The notes under the pieces are model-generated. The model had not been told where the DNA came from, made no database searches, and was given only the letters and a program-made list of their open reading frames with translations. 64,000 bases of DNA, from positions 48,057 through 112,056 of the forward strand of contig JACOUT010000009.1 of assembly GCA_016177705.1 (NCBI GenBank). The letters run 5' to 3'. Positions 5,706 to 47,863 of the stretch are shown here, one piece after another. Origin of the DNA: Deltaproteobacteria bacterium. GTDB taxonomy: Bacteria > Myxococcota > UBA727 > VGSZ01. The position numbers and the translations under genes are program-made. Position 1 is the stretch's first letter. Each line of letters starts with the position of its first letter.

Positions 5706-5996
5706 TCAGTCGTCGCGCCCCGGCGTACGGTCCATGCGTCCGTGAACGACGCCGAGGATGTTCACATGGTCGCGCTGCACCTCGTAGATCACGATGTAGG
5801 GCGTCGTGGCGACGACCAGCTCGCGCGTGCCGGGCACGAAGCCGTCGCGCCCCATCTGTGGGTTTCGTTCGAGGTGCTCGACGACGTCCAAGATCCGCGC
5901 GGCCAGTCTCGATGCCGCGCGCGGACTGTTCTCGGCCACGAACCGGCGGGCCTCGATGAGGTCGGCGCGCGCCTCCTTCGACCATCTCACTCGCAC
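5706..5996 (-). CDS. parE: type II toxin, ParE/RelE family
   Basis: 96 aa, MRVRWSKEARADLIEARRFVAENSPRAASRLA...ILGVVHGRMD, a typical ParE. It overlaps the 3' end of the upstream antitoxin gene by 10 nt. Confidence 0.8.
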   Translation of the reverse strand: MRVRWSKEARADLIEARRFVAENSPRAASRLAARILDVVEHLERNPQMGRDGFVPGTRELVVATTPYIVIYEVQRDHVNILGVVHGRMDRTPGRDD

Positions 5997-6238
5997 GGTG
6001 GCGGCTCGGTCTCGTCCTTCGTGCCCCAGCTCCTCAGCCAGGCAACCATCTTGTCGTTGTCGACGACGCGCCCAGCGGCGACGTCCGCCCGCGCGCGCGC
6101 GATCTTCGCCTCGGTCTTCTTGTCACTGAGCGTGCCCTTGAGCAGCTCGCCTGCGAGCTTGTCCACGCTCTTGCCGAGATCCTTCGCTAGGGCCTCGAGC
6201 TCCTTGGCGAGCTTGTCGTCGATCGAGATCGTCACCAT
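5987..6238 (-). CDS. type II antitoxin, ribbon-helix-helix (ParD/CopG-like)
   Basis: 83 aa from the internal ATG, MVTISIDDKLAKELEALAKDLGKSVDKLAGELL. RHH pattern. Lies immediately upstream of and overlapping parE. Confidence 0.7.
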   Translation of the reverse strand: MVTISIDDKLAKELEALAKDLGKSVDKLAGELLKGTLSDKKTEAKIARARADVAAGRVVDNDKMVAWLRSWGTKDETEPPPCE

Positions 6239-6620
6239 GATGAGCGAAGGATAGCGCCCCCGTGCAGCGCTGTCGTCGACGACGGTGCCCGCGCCCCTCC
6301 TCCGCAGGAGCACCATCGCCCGGGCTTGGTCACCTGGCGCGACAGAGCCCGCACCGCCGCAAGGTACGCCGTGCGGCGCGCTGCGGAGCGCCGCACACGC
6401 CGTCGGCCCTGCACAGCAATCGCCCACCGGCGCACTGTTCACCGCCGGAGATCCGCGCCTGGCCCGGGGGCGGCGGCCGCAGTGAACGCCGCACGAGCCG
6501 ACCAGCCGGCGAGCGCAACCGCCTGTATTCCCACGGGGGCGGCACCGCTGCTCGCAGCTCAGGTGGCGCTCCCCGCGATCCGATTTGCGCTCGCCCGCCT
6601 TCGGGGGTCTCCTCTCGGTG

Positions 6621-7238
6621 ATGAGCGCGACCGCCCCCCAGGTGCTCACCGCCGCGGCGCCGCACGACGCGCTGCGGGCGCTGTTCGACGCCGCGCGCGC
6701 AGGCGACGCCGCCGCGCTCGAGTCGCTGTGTGTGCAGATGCGCCCGCGCCTGTACCGCAGCGCCTGGGCGGTGCTGCACGACGCCGATGAGGCCGACGAC
6801 GTGGCGCAGGACGCGCTCGTGCGCGCCGTCACGCGTCGCTTCCTCTTCCTCGGCAGAGGCAGCGTCGCTGGTTGGATGACCCGCATCGCGCTCAACCTGG
6901 CGAAGAACCGGCTGCGCGACGGCCGCCGCCGCCGCCAGATCCTGGACGACGCCTCGCCGGAGGAGCGCGCCTCTCGCGGCGCCGCGCCGACGGCGCCAGT
7001 CCGAGCCGACGACGTTGCCGCCACCCTGCAGGCGCGCCGTCGGCTCTCCGCCGCCGTGGCCGCGCTGCCCGAGCGGCAGCGCGAGGTGGTGGAGCTGCAC
7101 GTCTCGGCCGGCCTCGACTGGGGCGACGTCGCCGAGGCGCTCGGCATCAGCGAGGCCAACGCCCGCATGACCTACTCGAACGCCAGGAAGAAGCTCTTGT
7201 CCGCGCTCGGCGCCACCGGCGCATCGGAGGAACCATGA
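6621..7238 (+). CDS. ECF (sigma-24-type) RNA polymerase sigma factor
   Basis: Region 2 (RLYRSAWAVLHDADEADDVAQDALVRA) and region 4 (LPERQREVVELHVSAGLDWGDVAEALGISEANARMTY). The stop overlaps the next ATG (ATGA). Confidence 0.8.
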   Translation: MSATAPQVLTAAAPHDALRALFDAARAGDAAALESLCVQMRPRLYRSAWAVLHDADEADDVAQDALVRAVTRRFLFLGRGSVAGWMTRIALNLAKNRLRDGRRRRQILDDASPEERASRGAAPTAPVRADDVAATLQARRRLSAAVAALPERQREVVELHVSAGLDWGDVAEALGISEANARMTYSNARKKLLSALGATGASEEP

Positions 7239-42913: not shown

Positions 42914-43443
42914 TGCTCGCGACGAGCGGCGAAGTGCTGGTGGCGTGCGGGCTCGAGGATGCCTGGGCGCTGTTCAACCGCTTCGACGAGGTGGCCACGC
43001 TCATCCCCACGCTCAAGTCGATCGAGTTCCGCGAGGACGAGATCTGGGCCACCATGGGCGTGCAGCTCGGCGTCATCTCGGTGACGAGCCGCGTGATGCT
43101 GCACGTGGTGCACCTCGCCCCGTGGCGCATCACCGCCGAGGGCTGGTCGTTTCTGGGCGAGACCATCAGCACGCAGATCAACAAGAACGGCGCTGCCGGC
43201 ATCGAGAAGGACGCCAAGGGCAAGCTCACCATCCACCTCGAGCTCGAGCCGGTGAACGGCGTCGGTGTCCTCGTCAAATACGCCGCCGAGGTGGAGGCGT
43301 TCGGGCGGCTCAAGCGCATCTACCAGTCGATCTTGAAGAGCAAGGCGCCGCCCTTGATGGAGGAGTTCGCCGAGCGGCTGCGCATGGCGCTCGACATCGG
43401 CGTCGACATCTCGCTCACCTCGCTCGAGGGGCCGCCGCTGTGA
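42913..43443 (+). CDS. SRPBCC-superfamily (CoxG / polyketide cyclase-like) protein
   Basis: 176 aa. ATG overlaps the stop of the preceding gene. Sequence pattern consistent with the CoxG/SRPBCC family. Confidence 0.5.
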   Translation: MLATSGEVLVACGLEDAWALFNRFDEVATLIPTLKSIEFREDEIWATMGVQLGVISVTSRVMLHVVHLAPWRITAEGWSFLGETISTQINKNGAAGIEKDAKGKLTIHLELEPVNGVGVLVKYAAEVEAFGRLKRIYQSILKSKAPPLMEEFAERLRMALDIGVDISLTSLEGPPL

Positions 43444-43453
43444 GAAAGAAGAC

Positions 43454-43711
43454 GTGAAGATCATCTCGAAGTTCCTCACCGCCGACGTGCGCCTGACCCG
43501 CATCTCGATCAAGGAGGGCAAGATCGAGATGACCGGCGTGGTCAAGGAGTTCATGCCCATCGAGATCGAGGTCAGCTTCGCGGACGTGCGCGCGACCGCG
43601 AAGCTGGTCGGCGAGGAGCTCAAGAAGGTGCCGCGGCGCGCGCTCGCGCGAGTGAAGGCGCGCGTGCCGTTCTTTGGCGGTAGAGCGGGCGAGGGCGAGA
43701 CCGCCGGCTGA
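43454..43711 (+). CDS. small hypothetical protein
   Basis: 85 aa, 10 nt after the SRPBCC gene. Lys/Glu-rich. No motif recognised. Confidence 0.4.
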   Translation: MKIISKFLTADVRLTRISIKEGKIEMTGVVKEFMPIEIEVSFADVRATAKLVGEELKKVPRRALARVKARVPFFGGRAGEGETAG

Positions 43712-43877
43712 CGACGTCGTCGTGCGGCGGCGGTCCTTGAACCGCTTCAGGGTTGCCGTCGTAGCGGGTCCTGTCACCCGACGCCGTTTCTTGCGCGCGC
43801 GCCAAAGCTCGCGCGCTCCAGAAACGCCGCCGGGTGCCACCCGCCGGCGCAGGTTCGTGCAGGTTCGGCGCATTCTT

Positions 43878-43919
43878 ACGGACCGTTAGGCTCTGTCGTC
43901 GTCAGCGCCTAACGGTCCG
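43878..43919. promoter_or_regulatory. 13-bp perfect inverted repeat (cggaccgttaggc–N15–gcctaacggtccg) upstream of the ECF sigma gene
   Basis: Read directly from the sequence. It lies about 50–90 nt upstream of the sigma factor start. No downstream T-tract, so it is more likely an operator than an intrinsic terminator. Confidence 0.45.
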
Positions 43920-43967
43920 CAGGTCGAGGGCGAAGGTCGCGCGCGGTTCGTGCCATGGTTACCCGCC

Positions 43968-44681
43968 ATGGCCCGCTTCGCCTCGACCCGCTGGAGCCTG
44001 ATCGCGCGCGCCCGCGCCGACGATGCGGTCGCGGCGTCCGAGGCGTTTGGCGCGCTGTTCGTCGCCTACCGCGATCCGCTCTACGCCTTCCTGCGGCGCA
44101 GCGGCGCTTCCCCCGAGGACGCCCTCGATCGCATGCAGGATCTGTTCGCCGGCATGCTCGCCCGGCGCGACCTCGAGAGAGTGGCGCCGGAGCGCGGGCG
44201 CTTTCGCGATTGGCTGCTCGCCGCCGCGCGCCACACGCTGTCGAACGCTAGAGACAAGGAGCGCGCCGCCAAGCGCGGCGGCGGCGCCGTGCCGCTCTCG
44301 CTCGACGCGCGCGCGGTCGAGGACGGCTACGCCTTGGATCCGGGGCACGACCTCACGCCCGAAAAGCTCTACCTGCGCCGCTTCGCGCTCGCCACCATCG
44401 CGGCCGCGCTGGCGGCGCTGCGCGTGGAGTGTGAGCAGGTGGGCAAGCTCGCGCGCTTCGAGGCGCTGCGGCCCGCGCTCGTCGGTGACCTGCCGGAGGG
44501 GGGCTATCAGGAGATTGGCGCGTCGCTCGGCTTGGGCGAGAACGCCGCCAAGCAGGAGGGGCACCGGTTGCGTACCCGATTCCGCGAGCTGGTGCGGGCG
44601 CAGGTGGCCGACACCCTCGATGACGACGAGCCCGCCGCGGTGGAGGCGGAGCTGCGCTCGCTGCTCGCCGAGATCTCGTAG
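43968..44681 (+). CDS. ECF-type sigma factor of the TRWSLI N-terminal class (Ser/Thr-kinase-associated type)
   Basis: MARFASTRWSLIARA N-terminus. Region-4-like YQEIGASLGLGENAAKQEGHRLRTRFRELV. A Ser/Thr kinase gene follows. Confidence 0.65.
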   Translation: MARFASTRWSLIARARADDAVAASEAFGALFVAYRDPLYAFLRRSGASPEDALDRMQDLFAGMLARRDLERVAPERGRFRDWLLAAARHTLSNARDKERAAKRGGGAVPLSLDARAVEDGYALDPGHDLTPEKLYLRRFALATIAAALAALRVECEQVGKLARFEALRPALVGDLPEGGYQEIGASLGLGENAAKQEGHRLRTRFRELVRAQVADTLDDDEPAAVEAELRSLLAEIS

Positions 44682-44843
44682 TACGGCCGTAACCGCGGCG
44701 CGTGCCTCCGTCTCAAGGGGATGGAGGTTGCGATGCACCCACGAGAAGCGCCGCCGTGCACGTCCGCAGGGTTCCTTGCCTTCGGAGGCGCAGGTCAGGC
44801 GTCCAGCGGTGGGCTCCGATCGCACGGAACCTCGAGCGGCCGG

Positions 44844-45317
44844 ATGCTGACCGTGCCGCTGAGCTCCAGCCTTGAACCCATTCTCGCTCCGCTCGGTTTG
44901 GTCTCGTCAATCGCATTTCTCATCCCCCATGGCTGCACGTGGGCCGCGCTCCTAAACGTGGTCATCTTCGTCGCGTGCGCACTGGGCTCGGCCGGGACTC
45001 GTAAGGTCGATGCAGATCTTGAAATCCTCCCGTGTGGCAGCCTCACCGTGACGTTTCGTCGGCCGCTCGGAGAGCGAACCGTGACCGTGTCTGCCTCGTC
45101 GGTGCGTGCGCTCGCGCTCGTCGAAGTCGTGGACGAGGGTTCGACCTGGGAAGCGCGGTTGTTGTTTCACGACCGCGCTCCTCTGGATCTCGGCATTGCG
45201 AACGACAGTGCGCCGACCATCGCGCAGTTCCTTCAGATCCCCCTGGAGCGCCACCCGGACGGTGCAGCTCCGTACGTTCCAGCTCCCGCCAGCGCTACGC
45301 TCGCTGCCGACGCATGA
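44844..45317 (+). CDS. small hypothetical membrane protein in a locally low-GC segment
   Basis: Part of ORF 44721..45317. One predicted TM segment (IAFLIPHGCTWAALLNVVIFVACALGS). GC content is clearly lower than in the flanks. The start is uncertain. Confidence 0.35.
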   Translation: MLTVPLSSSLEPILAPLGLVSSIAFLIPHGCTWAALLNVVIFVACALGSAGTRKVDADLEILPCGSLTVTFRRPLGERTVTVSASSVRALALVEVVDEGSTWEARLLFHDRAPLDLGIANDSAPTIAQFLQIPLERHPDGAAPYVPAPASATLAADA

Positions 45318-47245
45318 CCGAGCCGAGCGCAGCATGCCCGACCTGCGGCATCTCGATGCCACCGAGCGCTCCAGGTGGGCTCTGTCCTGCGTGCGTGCTC
45401 GGCGCCGCGCTCGCGCCGCCCGAGCCGTCCACCGAGCGGCGCGTCGGCAACTATGAGCTGCTCGACGTCGTCGCGCGCGGAGGGATGGGCGTGGTCTACC
45501 GCGCGCGCGACCTGCGCCTGCAGCGCATCGTGGCGCTCAAGCGCTTGGTGGGCGGCCCGCTCGCCGACGACGGCGAGATGGAGCGGCTGCGCGCCGAGGC
45601 CGCGCGCGCGGCCGCGCTCGATCACCCGGGCATCGTCCCCGTCTACGAGGTGGGCGAGCACGAGGGTGCGCCCTACGTCGCCATGCGCTTGATCGAGGGC
45701 GGCACCCTCACCGATCGGATCGGGCACACCGACGCTCGGCAAGCGGCGACGTTGGTGGCCGCGGTGGCGCACGCGGTGCACCACGCCCACCAGCGCGGCG
45801 TGCTGCACCGCGACCTCAAGCCCGACAACGTCCTCGTCGACGCGCAAGGGCAGCCCGTGGTCGCGGACTTCGGGCTGGCGCGCCGGCTCGGGCAGCGCGG
45901 CTCGAGCACCACCGGCGCCGCCGGCACCCCGGGCTTCATGGCGCCCGAGGTCTTCGACCAGCGCCCGGACGCGCTCACGGTCGCGGTCGACGTCTATGGC
46001 CTCGGCGCGCTGCTCTATGCGCTGTTGTCAGGTCGCGCGCCCATCGAAGGCGACACGCTGGTGCACCACCTGCGCCTGCTGCGCGAGCAGCGACCGGCGG
46101 CCCTGGTCGACGTCGATCGCGATCTCGCGGCCATCTGCCTCAAGTGCTTGGAGAAGAGTCCGACGCATCGCTACCGCTCCGCCGACGGGCTGGCGCACGA
46201 TCTCGAGCGCTGGCTCCGTGGCGACGAGGTGATCGCGCGGCCGCTCGGGCCCATCGATCGCGTGCTGCGCCTGGCAGGCAGCCACCCGCTCGCCTTTGCC
46301 GGCGCGAGCATCGGCGTGCTCATCGTGGTCGCCGTCGCCATCGTCGCCGTGCACGTCGCTCGCACGCAGGAGGTGGAGCTGCGCGAGCGTGCGTATCAGG
46401 CGAACGCCTTCGCCGCGCAGGCGCTCGCCGGCAGCGTGCTGCACGAGCTCGACAAGCTTGCGCTCGCCGTGCGCGCCGCGGCCGACCGTGTGGAGGCCGG
46501 CGCGACGCTCGAGTCCGTGCGCGCCGACCCCGCGCTCGCCCTGGCGGACAGCGTCGCTCGCCTCGACGGGCTGGACGCGATCAAGGTCGCCCGTGCGCCG
46601 CCGGGGGCGCGCCCGCAGGAGGGGCGCGCCTTCGCGTGGCGAGACTACGTCCACGGGCTGCGCGAGCTGCCGGCGCGCGCGGTGCACTTCTCCCGAGCCT
46701 ATCGCTCGACCGTCGACGACACGATCCGCGTCTCGCTCTCGACGACGCTGGCGTCGTCAGGCGGCGCAGCCGCGGATGTCCTCGAGGTCGCGCTTCACGT
46801 CGACCACCGTCTCGGCGATCTCGACCTGTCAAAGGCGCAGACCTGGGCGCTGCTGGCGCGCTGGGATCGGCAGAGCCCGGAGGGGGCACTGCCGGATGAC
46901 TGGGCCATCGTGGTCCACGAGGCGCTCGACCCGCACGCGGCGCCGCTGCTGCTGCGCCTTTCCCCGCTTGGCGACGCGCCGACGCGCCTCGAGTGCCACC
47001 GCGACCCGGTGCCGGGTTTCGAGGGCTGCTGGCTCGCCGCCGCCGCCCTCGTGCCGGCGACGCCCTACGCGGTCATCGTGCAGACGCGCGACTTGGAGGT
47101 GCTGGCGCCCAAGGAGCGTCTGGTCTCGCGCCTGCTCGCCACCGTAGCCATCGCCGCGCTGGTTGGCGGCGCCGCGACGCTGCTGCTCGCCGCGCTCGCT
47201 CGTGCGCGTCGGCGCCGGCGTGCTCGGCCGCGGGCCGCCGGGTAG
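45313..47245 (+). CDS. Ser/Thr protein kinase with an N-terminal Cys4 zinc ribbon, a TM helix and a C-terminal extracytoplasmic domain
   Basis: CPTCG…CPAC. Kinase subdomains VALKRL, HRDLKPDNVLV, DFGLAR and GTPGFMAPE. TM segment LAFAGASIGVLIVVAVAIVAV. A C-terminal sensor-like domain of about 280 aa. Confidence 0.88.
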
Positions 47246-47323
47246 TCCCCTCGAGGGTGGCACCCGTGCGGTTGCAGACGGCGAGCTGGTCGTCACCTGC
47301 AACGGCGCGATACGCTCGTCACA

Positions 47324-47863
47324 GTGACGACGACGTACTGGGGCTGCTCGGTGATCGCGCTGACCGCGTTGCTCGCTTCCGGGGCGCGCGCGGCGGGCCC
47401 CGTCGCGGACGCGCCGCCCGAGCGCCCGGCGATGACCGAGCAGACACCGGCGGAGTCGAGCGCGTGGCTGATCAGCGTGGGCGCGCTTGGCGGCGCCGTC
47501 GGCTACGGCCTCGGCGTCATCGCGGCGACCGTAGCGACCAACGGCGCCAACCCGGTCAACGCCGCCCTGCAGCACCCCGGCGAGTGGGGCCTGATCCTCA
47601 CCGGGCTCTTGGTGCCGATTCCGATGACCGGGCTGATGGCGGGCGCGGTCACGCTGCTGGCACGCGACTGGGTGACCGGGCTCGCCGTGGCCGCCGCCAC
47701 CGCCGGCGTTGCTTTGGTCGGACACGGCACGCTGCTGGTCATCGGCGCCGCGGGCATCGGCGAGTGGGGGTGGCAGATCGAGGGGGTCGCGCTGGTCGTC
47801 GTCGGGGCGCTGGTGGCGACCGCGGGCGGTGCCACCGCCGGGCTGGTGCAGCTCGTGGAGTAG
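47324..47863 (+). CDS. hypothetical Gly/Ala-rich membrane protein
   Basis: Signal or TM N-terminus and several glycine-zipper TM segments. 179 aa. Confidence 0.45.
   Translation: MTTTYWGCSVIALTALLASGARAAGPVADAPPERPAMTEQTPAESSAWLISVGALGGAVGYGLGVIAATVATNGANPVNAALQHPGEWGLILTGLLVPIPMTGLMAGAVTLLARDWVTGLAVAAATAGVALVGHGTLLVIGAAGIGEWGWQIEGVALVVVGALVATAGGATAGLVQLVE

Follow-up and report, generated by a model that had tools for sequence, protein, structure and literature searches.

Pairs made up of a sigma factor of the extracytoplasmic function (ECF) type and a Ser/Thr kinase are regarded as two-part systems, and to our knowledge ECF43 is the sole kinase-paired ECF group that has been studied experimentally. 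These pairs, which include ECF43 (EcfP–PknT of Vibrio parahaemolyticus and EcfK–PknS of Xanthomonas citri) and the groups ECF59–62, 217 and 283, share the order of a sigma factor followed by a transmembrane (TM) Hanks-type kinase, a conserved adjacency of the two genes and the lack of a classical anti-sigma factor (PMC7826278, PMC13147305). Kinase-associated ECF groups are typically without anti-sigma factors and, ECF267 excepted, have been described without co-encoded regulators (PMC7826278). In ECF43 the acidic DxxD of region 2.2 is replaced by uncharged QTTA or STTA with a phospho-threonine, and its members regain the lost charge through phosphorylation (PMC13147305, PMC8103513). Here we describe a related locus in a 64,000-nucleotide stretch of a groundwater metagenome-assembled genome labelled 'Deltaproteobacteria bacterium' (GenBank assembly GCA_016177705.1, contig JACOUT010000009.1, positions 48,057 to 112,056; this whole stretch is called the window below). 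In this locus a third gene lies between the sigma factor and the kinase. It encodes a small, hypervariable and predicted membrane protein, which we tentatively read as an accessory subunit of the module.

On the + strand of the window, the genes for an ECF-type sigma factor (43968–44681, 237 amino acids (aa)), the small protein (44733–45317, 194 aa) and a Hanks-type Ser/Thr kinase (45314–47245, 643 aa) were found closely packed in this order. All three genes are thus present as the original prediction, made from the sequence alone, had placed them, with the small open reading frame (ORF) between the other two. The start of 43878 that it gave for the locus is the coordinate of an upstream palindrome, and the sigma gene itself begins at 43968. 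A scan of the locus for promoters and terminators revealed no terminator-like or sigma-70 promoter-like site between the genes. The locus resembles the described pairs in its sigma-then-kinase order, in the conserved adjacency and in having no classical anti-sigma factor, and differs from them in the third membrane gene between sigma and kinase, which is probably coupled to the kinase in translation.

The small ORF was firmly established as a genuine, orphan, operonic and lineage-specific gene. A word-seeded search of 5.8 billion proteins matched it to itself alone, phmmer, run exhaustively against 1.84 billion representatives, recovered two relatives, a profile search added two more, and a sixth family member was found beside a sigma protein of the same 90% cluster. 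All searches together gave six members, the window included, and every one of them lies at this locus, directly 5′ of the kinase gene. The evidence thus comes from a single uncultured lineage, sampled by six short contigs from metagenomes (the window, L004, L007, L073, L074 and L155); the contigs of the relatives stop inside the first 31–173 kinase codons, and kinase comparisons are limited to that part. The sigma gene stands just before the small ORF in four contigs that reach far enough (the window, L004, L007 and L155), the L073 contig is too short upstream to show its position, and L074 has other sequence in that place. Neither Pfam nor NCBIfam gave a match to the small ORF at E ≤ 1, and a Pfam search at E ≤ 10 on three members returned nothing relevant. 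The original prediction had allowed that the ORF might show no coding signal or conservation in relatives. We found that an ORF of 194–208 aa is kept at the same position in all six orthologues. In the reliably aligned C-terminal half, differences between orthologues were highest at third codon positions (0.50–0.66) and lowest at second positions (0.27–0.33), and the ratio of nonsynonymous to synonymous divergence (dN/dS) was 0.26–0.42 in frame compared with 0.9–1.7 in the two shifted frames. Closer pairs gave a dN/dS of 0.20–0.35 for the C-domain, and over the whole small ORF the value was 0.45–0.8. A non-coding spacer or a shadow ORF was rejected because this substitution pattern is frame-specific.

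Three positions are on record for the start of the gene: 44721 in the ORF list, 44844 in the NCBI annotation and a conserved ATG at 44733. The ATG at 44733 is preceded by GATGGAGG at all six loci. The ATG at 44721, further upstream, falls outside the reading frame in L004, and the relatives have no Met at the position of the NCBI start. Because the Shine–Dalgarno (SD) sequence, the ATG and the N-terminal motif of the protein are conserved in the five relatives, we set the start at 44733, giving a protein of 194 aa. The public annotation, HYS27_14315, has 157 aa and begins at Met38 of this protein, so that it appears to place the start 37 codons away from the true one.

The translation signals on both sides of the gene were conserved as well. 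The spacer in front of it forms a hairpin of 8–10 bp, CCUCCGUCUC-AAG-GGGAUGGAGG in the window (44705–44727, + strand), in which the GGAGG of the small ORF is paired with an upstream CCUCC. The same minimum-energy fold was obtained at six of the six loci, in a conserved sequence context and with z-scores of −0.6 to −2.75, and we infer that the hairpin may sequester the SD in a regulatory role. At the other end, the stop codon (TGA) of the small ORF and the start codon (ATG) of the kinase overlap as ATGA (45314–45317), again at all six loci, and the arrangement GAC GC(A) TGA / ATG ACC GAG is identical throughout. Taken together, the hairpin and the ATGA overlap suggest a coupled translation chain that would run from the sigma factor through the small protein to the kinase.

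We then compared the base composition of the gene with its surroundings, where a visible dip in GC had been noted. The dip is real, with a GC of 0.653 in the small ORF (0.633 in its core) against a window mean of 0.715, and 0.5% of 600-bp segments are as low. It is not unique, as some eight further stretches within the 64 kb have a GC of 0.66 or less, one of them directly upstream of the small ORF. The total GC of the small ORF alone is not remarkable, and codon usage is the stronger signal. The proposed codon-usage check showed the gene to be atypical: its GC at third codon positions (GC3) was 0.716, compared with 0.921 ± 0.035 across 40 gene-like ORFs of the window, the lowest of which had 0.80. 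By codon position the GC was 0.69/0.57/0.72, the low second position being typical of coding sequence. Overall GC was 0.65–0.68 in all six orthologues and 0.72–0.75 in their flanks, and GC3 was 0.72–0.80 in all five orthologues measured (of six). The suggestion of a recent acquisition was refuted by the same low GC at all six loci. Because all six carry the gene in this form, any acquisition would predate the split between them, and on this comparison of sequences low GC is a property of the gene family and not the mark of a recent arrival.

The structure of the small protein was predicted with AlphaFold2 (AF2), using the window protein with 3 sequences and a relative, P0123 (38% identical), with 5 sequences. 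Both models agreed on a disordered N-terminus, a short and conserved first strand (beta0), two long helices, six strands and a helix, with predicted local distance difference test (pLDDT) values of 70–85 across the structured part. The layout is that of an N-terminal motif, a disordered linker, beta0 (44841–44861), two membrane helices (44871–44996), a PH-like domain and a tail. The N-terminal motif, M-H/Y-x-x-D/E-P-x-P-C-T, belongs to 14 conserved initial residues, of which P8, C9, T10 and F14 are invariant, and the N-terminal 36 residues are predicted to be disordered. Although a single TM helix had been proposed, hydropathy revealed two hydrophobic segments in five orthologues (aa ~47–66 and 68–88 in the window protein), in agreement with the AF2 helices at 44–68 and 72–92 of P0123, and together these are predicted to form a membrane hairpin. 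The domain that follows (aa ~91–175, 45003–45257) is predicted to fold as a PH-like beta-sandwich carrying a C-terminal helix. Structure searches with the AF2 models agreed in returning PH-like folds, with weak Foldseek support (best E-value 6.6e-3), and the bPH profiles (PF03703 and related) did not match the small protein at E ≤ 10. The PH-like superfold is defined by seven strands in a bent beta-sandwich and a capping C-terminal helix. As beta0 would complete the domain from the other side of the helices, the small protein is predicted to consist of a PH-like domain into which the membrane hairpin is inserted. Because the number of membrane helices is even and strands of one domain lie on either side of them, both termini are predicted to be on the same side of the membrane, presumably in the cytoplasm.

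Two known kinds of protein resemble this architecture. In bacterial PH-domain membrane proteins (bPH_2, YdbS–YdbT, PF03703), N-terminal membrane helices lead into a small PH-like domain in the cytoplasm, as predicted here. EROS (CYBC1) is a membrane chaperone that serves NOX2 in eukaryotes. Its two membrane helices 'separate the PH domain', and the client membrane protein is gripped by both parts, at its TM helices and cytoplasmic tail (PMC11161758). The EROS structure (8kei_D) aligned with the small-protein model over 121–127 residues, a likeness of a model of moderate confidence to a solved structure, at 14–15% identity and with no sign of common descent.

A membrane-anchored protein encoded directly 3′ of an ECF sigma gene could also be a classical anti-sigma factor, keeping the sigma factor sequestered pending its release by the kinase or by some other signal, and an anti-sigma element had been among the original suggestions. 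This is very unlikely indeed because no such domain is present: neither Pfam nor NCBIfam gave an anti-sigma domain, even at E ≤ 10 in three members, and the disordered N-terminal 36 residues are too short for a four-helix anti-sigma domain. Furthermore, the small protein is hypervariable where the sigma factor is 90–94% conserved, and other loci of the sigma family are without the small gene.

The extent of this variability became clear when the six loci were compared. Nucleotide identity between relatives was 80–100% in the sigma gene, 73–89% over the sigma end and the 51-nt spacer, 35–60% over the whole small ORF and 80–98% from the first codons of the kinase onwards. The orthologues fell into three allele classes, A (the window), B (L004 and L074) and C (L007, L073 and L155), with small-ORF aa identities of 37–42% between classes and 57–72% within them. 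Where the small ORF was 37–42% identical, the flanking sigma and kinase proteins were 90–95% identical, which bears out the idea of a fast-evolving element. Between the window and L155, the synonymous divergence (dS) was 0.20 (95% bootstrap 0.13–0.27) for the sigma gene, at 94% aa identity, 0.28 (0.19–0.39) for 172 codons of the kinase gene, at 95%, and 1.14 (0.82–1.70) for the small ORF, at 37%. The synonymous divergence of the small ORF was thus 4–6 times that of its flanks, a ratio to be read with the caveats that dS above 1 is saturated, that the flanking segments are short and that high-GC3 flanks may under-record neutral change. Within class C, the small-ORF dS of 0.26–0.32 was the same as that of the kinase (0.27–0.33), and L155 and L007 differed by 0.26 in the small ORF compared with 0.33 in the flank. 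A uniformly faster clock is excluded because dS is raised between the window and L155 but equals that of the kinase within class C. In addition, the tree of the small ORF is deeper than that of the flanks and discordant with it. The simplest reading of these sequences is that old allele classes have been exchanged by homologous recombination in the conserved flanks. Within the gene, the membrane hairpin was the most variable part, with a dN/dS of ~1.3 within class C (L007–L073) compared with ~0.35 for the PH-like domain.

Hypermutation, or diversification of the diversity-generating retroelement type, was considered and rejected, as the synonymous divergence of class C equals that of the kinase. 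Ongoing hypermutation appears unlikely, because the strain-level variant L003 has 20 single-nucleotide polymorphisms in 2.8 kb, of which one, a synonymous one, is inside the small ORF.

The allele classes would be explained more naturally than by an accessory subunit if the small gene were cargo, that is, an output of the sigma factor encoding a protective or immunity-type membrane protein in an autoregulated operon and induced along with it, with allele classes maintained by arms races in which phage, bacteriocins or kin-discrimination toxins would be the opponents. We regard this as the main alternative, if on the whole rather unlikely. It fits the hypervariability sharply bounded by conserved flanks, and allele classes that are older than these flanks with a gene tree that conflicts with theirs (dS of 1.14 against 0.20–0.28 between the window and L155). 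The low GC3 of all five alleles measured, the low overall GC of all six and the predicted membrane location point the same way, as does the tolerance of the sigma–kinase junction for unrelated insertions, described below. A precedent is found in the sigmaW regulon of Bacillus subtilis, which contains the membrane bPH proteins YdbS and YdbT, protective against antimicrobial compounds. However, inspection of the gene neighbourhood revealed no toxin, secretion or phage genes adjoining the locus, the part of the protein predicted to face outside is a loop of ~5–10 residues, and the conserved part is the predicted cytoplasmic domain. The ATGA overlap, kept at all six loci, moreover suggests stoichiometric co-production with the kinase.

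We also examined the two partners of the small protein in the putative module. The sigma protein, whose N-terminus is MARFASTRWSLIARA with the N-terminal motif MARFASTRWSLI, contains a sigma-2 domain according to PF04542 Sigma70_r2 (31.7 bits, cut-off 24; E = 1.3e-7). Its score against the general ECF model TIGR02937 was 40.7 bits, just below the cut-off of 42.9, and that against PF07638 was 16.6, below the cut-off of 21.1; PF08281 is carried by several of its homologues. A search at E ≤ 1e-10 gave 472 homologues, the closest among species-representative genomes being from Haliangiales and Archangium (46–51%). The family consensus is FxTTRWSLV…YWYPLYAFVRR…DAxDLTQGFF…ERGRFR…KRGGG. In its TTRWS motif T7 is invariant and W9 at least 90% conserved across the family, and T7 and the conserved S10 are candidate phosphorylation sites. 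Region 2.2 reads D51-A-L-D54-R-M-Q57-D58 in the window sigma factor and DAxDLTQG in the family consensus. The acidic DxxD that ECF43 replaces by uncharged residues and a Thr is therefore retained, and because of this the sigma family is, judged by region 2.2, not ECF43, and the ECF43 phospho-switch logic is not simply transferable to it. The other trait of ECF43, an adjacent Hanks-type kinase gene, was found at the window and at most loci of the family. A link of TRWS-type sigma factors to Ser/Thr kinases, as originally predicted, is upheld by gene adjacency: a kinase gene with the Cys4 motif comes directly after the sigma gene at 40 of the 49 loci from genomes and at 54 of the 61 from metagenomes.

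The kinase of the window was assigned to the Hanks type by its Pkinase domain (PF00069, E = 3.4e-42; aa 47–296, 45452–46201) and by the catalytic motifs VALK at residue 73, HRDLKPDN at 165, DFG at 185 and APE at 210. Both the Cys4 motif and the sensor region that had been predicted for it were found. The motif, C8xxC11…C24xxC27, occupies aa 8–27 (45335–45394) and is, like the retained DxxD of the sigma factor, a point in which the locus differs from the described pairs. Hydropathy gave hydrophobic segments at aa ~326–349 (TM1, 46289–46360) and 605–629 (TM2, 47126–47200), between which lie ~255 aa that are presumed to be periplasmic; an Arg-rich tail follows TM2, and one kinase homologue gave a weak dCache_1 match. 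Among related metagenome kinases the Cys4 motif, in the form CxxC-(12-14)-GLCPxCLL, stands at the extreme N-terminus in 73 of 80, and it is a hallmark of the family across Myxococcota, Acidobacteriota, Verrucomicrobiota and Planctomycetota. It might be the part that binds the sigma factor, in which case no separate anti-sigma factor would be needed. A metagenome scan with the kinase found no close relatives, every match being at 50% identity or less, and the exact kinase sequence was absent from the protein collection searched.

We next asked how the sigma–kinase junction looks in the wider family. At the 49 genome loci with a downstream kinase, the kinase start lay within 200 nt of the sigma stop in 40 and more than 200 nt away in 9. 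At the 61 metagenome loci the gap was at most 184 nt in 54, 208–278 nt in 4 and at least 468 nt in 3. Because most family loci have such short gaps, the 632 nt between sigma stop and kinase start at the window are exceptional, and no ORF in the other large gaps resembles the small protein.

Several of these gaps hold genes of other kinds. At L018, a Verrucomicrobia locus, a 287-aa gene (5879–6742) between sigma and kinase looks by inspection like an FHA domain joined to an adenylate/guanylate-cyclase-like domain, and at L077 the slot is taken by a DUF374-like gene. Low-GC GxxExxY-like ORFs lie between sigma and kinase at the two unrelated loci L059 (4949–5326) and L152 (501–940), the L152 copy looking disrupted; these are probably selfish insertions at a junction that tolerates foreign DNA. 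Four loci from Vicinamibacterales (Acidobacteriota) have an ORF of 67–80 aa with two hydrophobic segments in this place (L021, 5736–5978; L026, 5744–5947; L036, 5746–5964; L032, ~5750–5995), with an SQPVRV motif common to those of L026 and L036; these ORFs possibly represent an independent small membrane partner.

Such junctions bring up the question of whether the small ORF is itself a selfish or neutral insertion, be it what is left of a mobile element or a gene in decay, and in either case without a function for the cell. Its orphan status, its unusual codon usage, an overall dN/dS of 0.45–0.8 and a junction that elsewhere carries obviously unrelated insertions would fit this description. 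We nevertheless consider it very improbable, since frame, start, SD hairpin and kinase overlap have been kept in six lineages despite synonymous saturation, the C-domain has a dN/dS of 0.20–0.42 and a foldable domain was predicted independently from two family members. A repeat search also found no direct or inverted repeats flanking the small ORF, and the gene neighbourhood has no transposase or integrase genes.

We tentatively favour the reading, plausible rather than probable and in line with the adaptor originally suggested, that the small protein is an accessory third subunit of the kinase/sigma module, because its gene is exclusive to this junction, its coupling to the kinase is conserved and its predicted architecture is EROS-like. 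The small gene would be co-transcribed with the sigma gene and would yield an inner-membrane protein with a cytoplasmic PH-like domain, which is probably made together with the kinase because its stop codon overlaps the kinase start codon. The protein would then dock on the membrane-embedded kinase, with the hairpin against the kinase TM helices and the PH-like domain against a cytoplasmic part of the kinase or against the sigma factor, and docking on this putative partner may tune or gate signalling. The FHA-domain gene in the same slot of L018 was counted for this reading. LiaF–LiaS, MgrB–PhoQ and SafA–PhoQ are known cases of small membrane modulators of sensor kinases. Like the window layout, they place a small membrane protein beside a membrane sensor kinase and co-express the two; however, they act on histidine kinases, and they have no sequence or fold relationship to the small protein.

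A number of observations weigh against an accessory subunit. Some 110 further sigma–kinase pairs in this family work without the small gene, and the unrelated insertions found at some of them may mean that the site is simply insertion-tolerant. A large specific interface is difficult to square with an identity of 37–42% in the small ORF beside flanks of 90–95%, and the membrane hairpin shows no constraint on its sequence. The AF2 models have a mean pLDDT of 62–68 and come from alignments of 3–5 sequences. At L074, furthermore, no frame of the stretch upstream of the small ORF encodes sigma. Positions 1–330 of this contig (1012 nt) contain a hydrophobic ORF of 65–93 aa, and homology to the other loci begins ~45 nt before the ATG; the difference could have come about by rearrangement, by an additional insertion or by a chimera made in assembly.

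A more elaborate form of the subunit reading makes the small protein a polymorphic specificity or gating subunit. In this form, which we consider improbable, a split-PH membrane-hairpin protein would clamp the kinase as EROS clamps NOX2, and frequency-dependent selection would preserve its ancient alleles, which recombination in the conserved sigma and kinase genes would carry from strain to strain. If this were true, each strain would have a signalling module of its own specificity, comparable to pherotypes or kin discrimination. The agr groups of staphylococci and the comQXP pherotypes of Bacillus are known examples of hypervariable specificity cassettes set within conserved flanks. These share with the window a sharp drop in identity over one gene inside a signalling operon, discrete alleles and a discordant phylogeny, whereas the window locus has no peptide signal or processing gene.

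Further features were seen on either side of the three genes. A non-coding block upstream of sigma (43733–43860) is ~99% identical between the window and L004 and more conserved than the neighbouring coding sequence (dS ~0.3). L155 is without this block, and its upstream neighbour is an ABC-F ATPase gene on the other strand. The whole 256-nt spacer upstream of sigma gave an unusually stable RNA fold of −138 kcal/mol (z = −4.5), and an Rfam scan of 43300–47400 returned two sub-threshold matches to miRNA models alone. The palindrome mentioned above is near-perfect (43879–43919; 20-nt arms, 90% complementary), lies ~50 nt 5′ of the sigma start and is deleted or absent in L004. An ECF-like promoter candidate, GAAC-N16-CGT at 43739, was dropped as it is not conserved in L004. 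Directly 3′ of the kinase, at 47324–47863, a 179-aa Gly/Ala-rich ORF with several hydrophobic segments gave no Pfam or NCBIfam match; it may be part of the same operon.

Collectively, the sigma–kinase pair described here is of a known kind, and the protein inserted between its members, which is probably coupled in translation, hypervariable and predicted to be of the split-PH type, is new and belongs to an undescribed family. The locus represents a three-gene version of the sigma–kinase pair, and the discrete, ancient alleles of the small gene within near-identical flanks are the pattern by which evolution marks specificity or conflict genes. Should the small protein act on the kinase, the kinase-paired ECF class would have its first accessory subunit, and bacteria a case of a PH domain split by a membrane hairpin. 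If it is cargo, the sigma–kinase junction would be a parking place for stress-induced, fast-evolving membrane genes.

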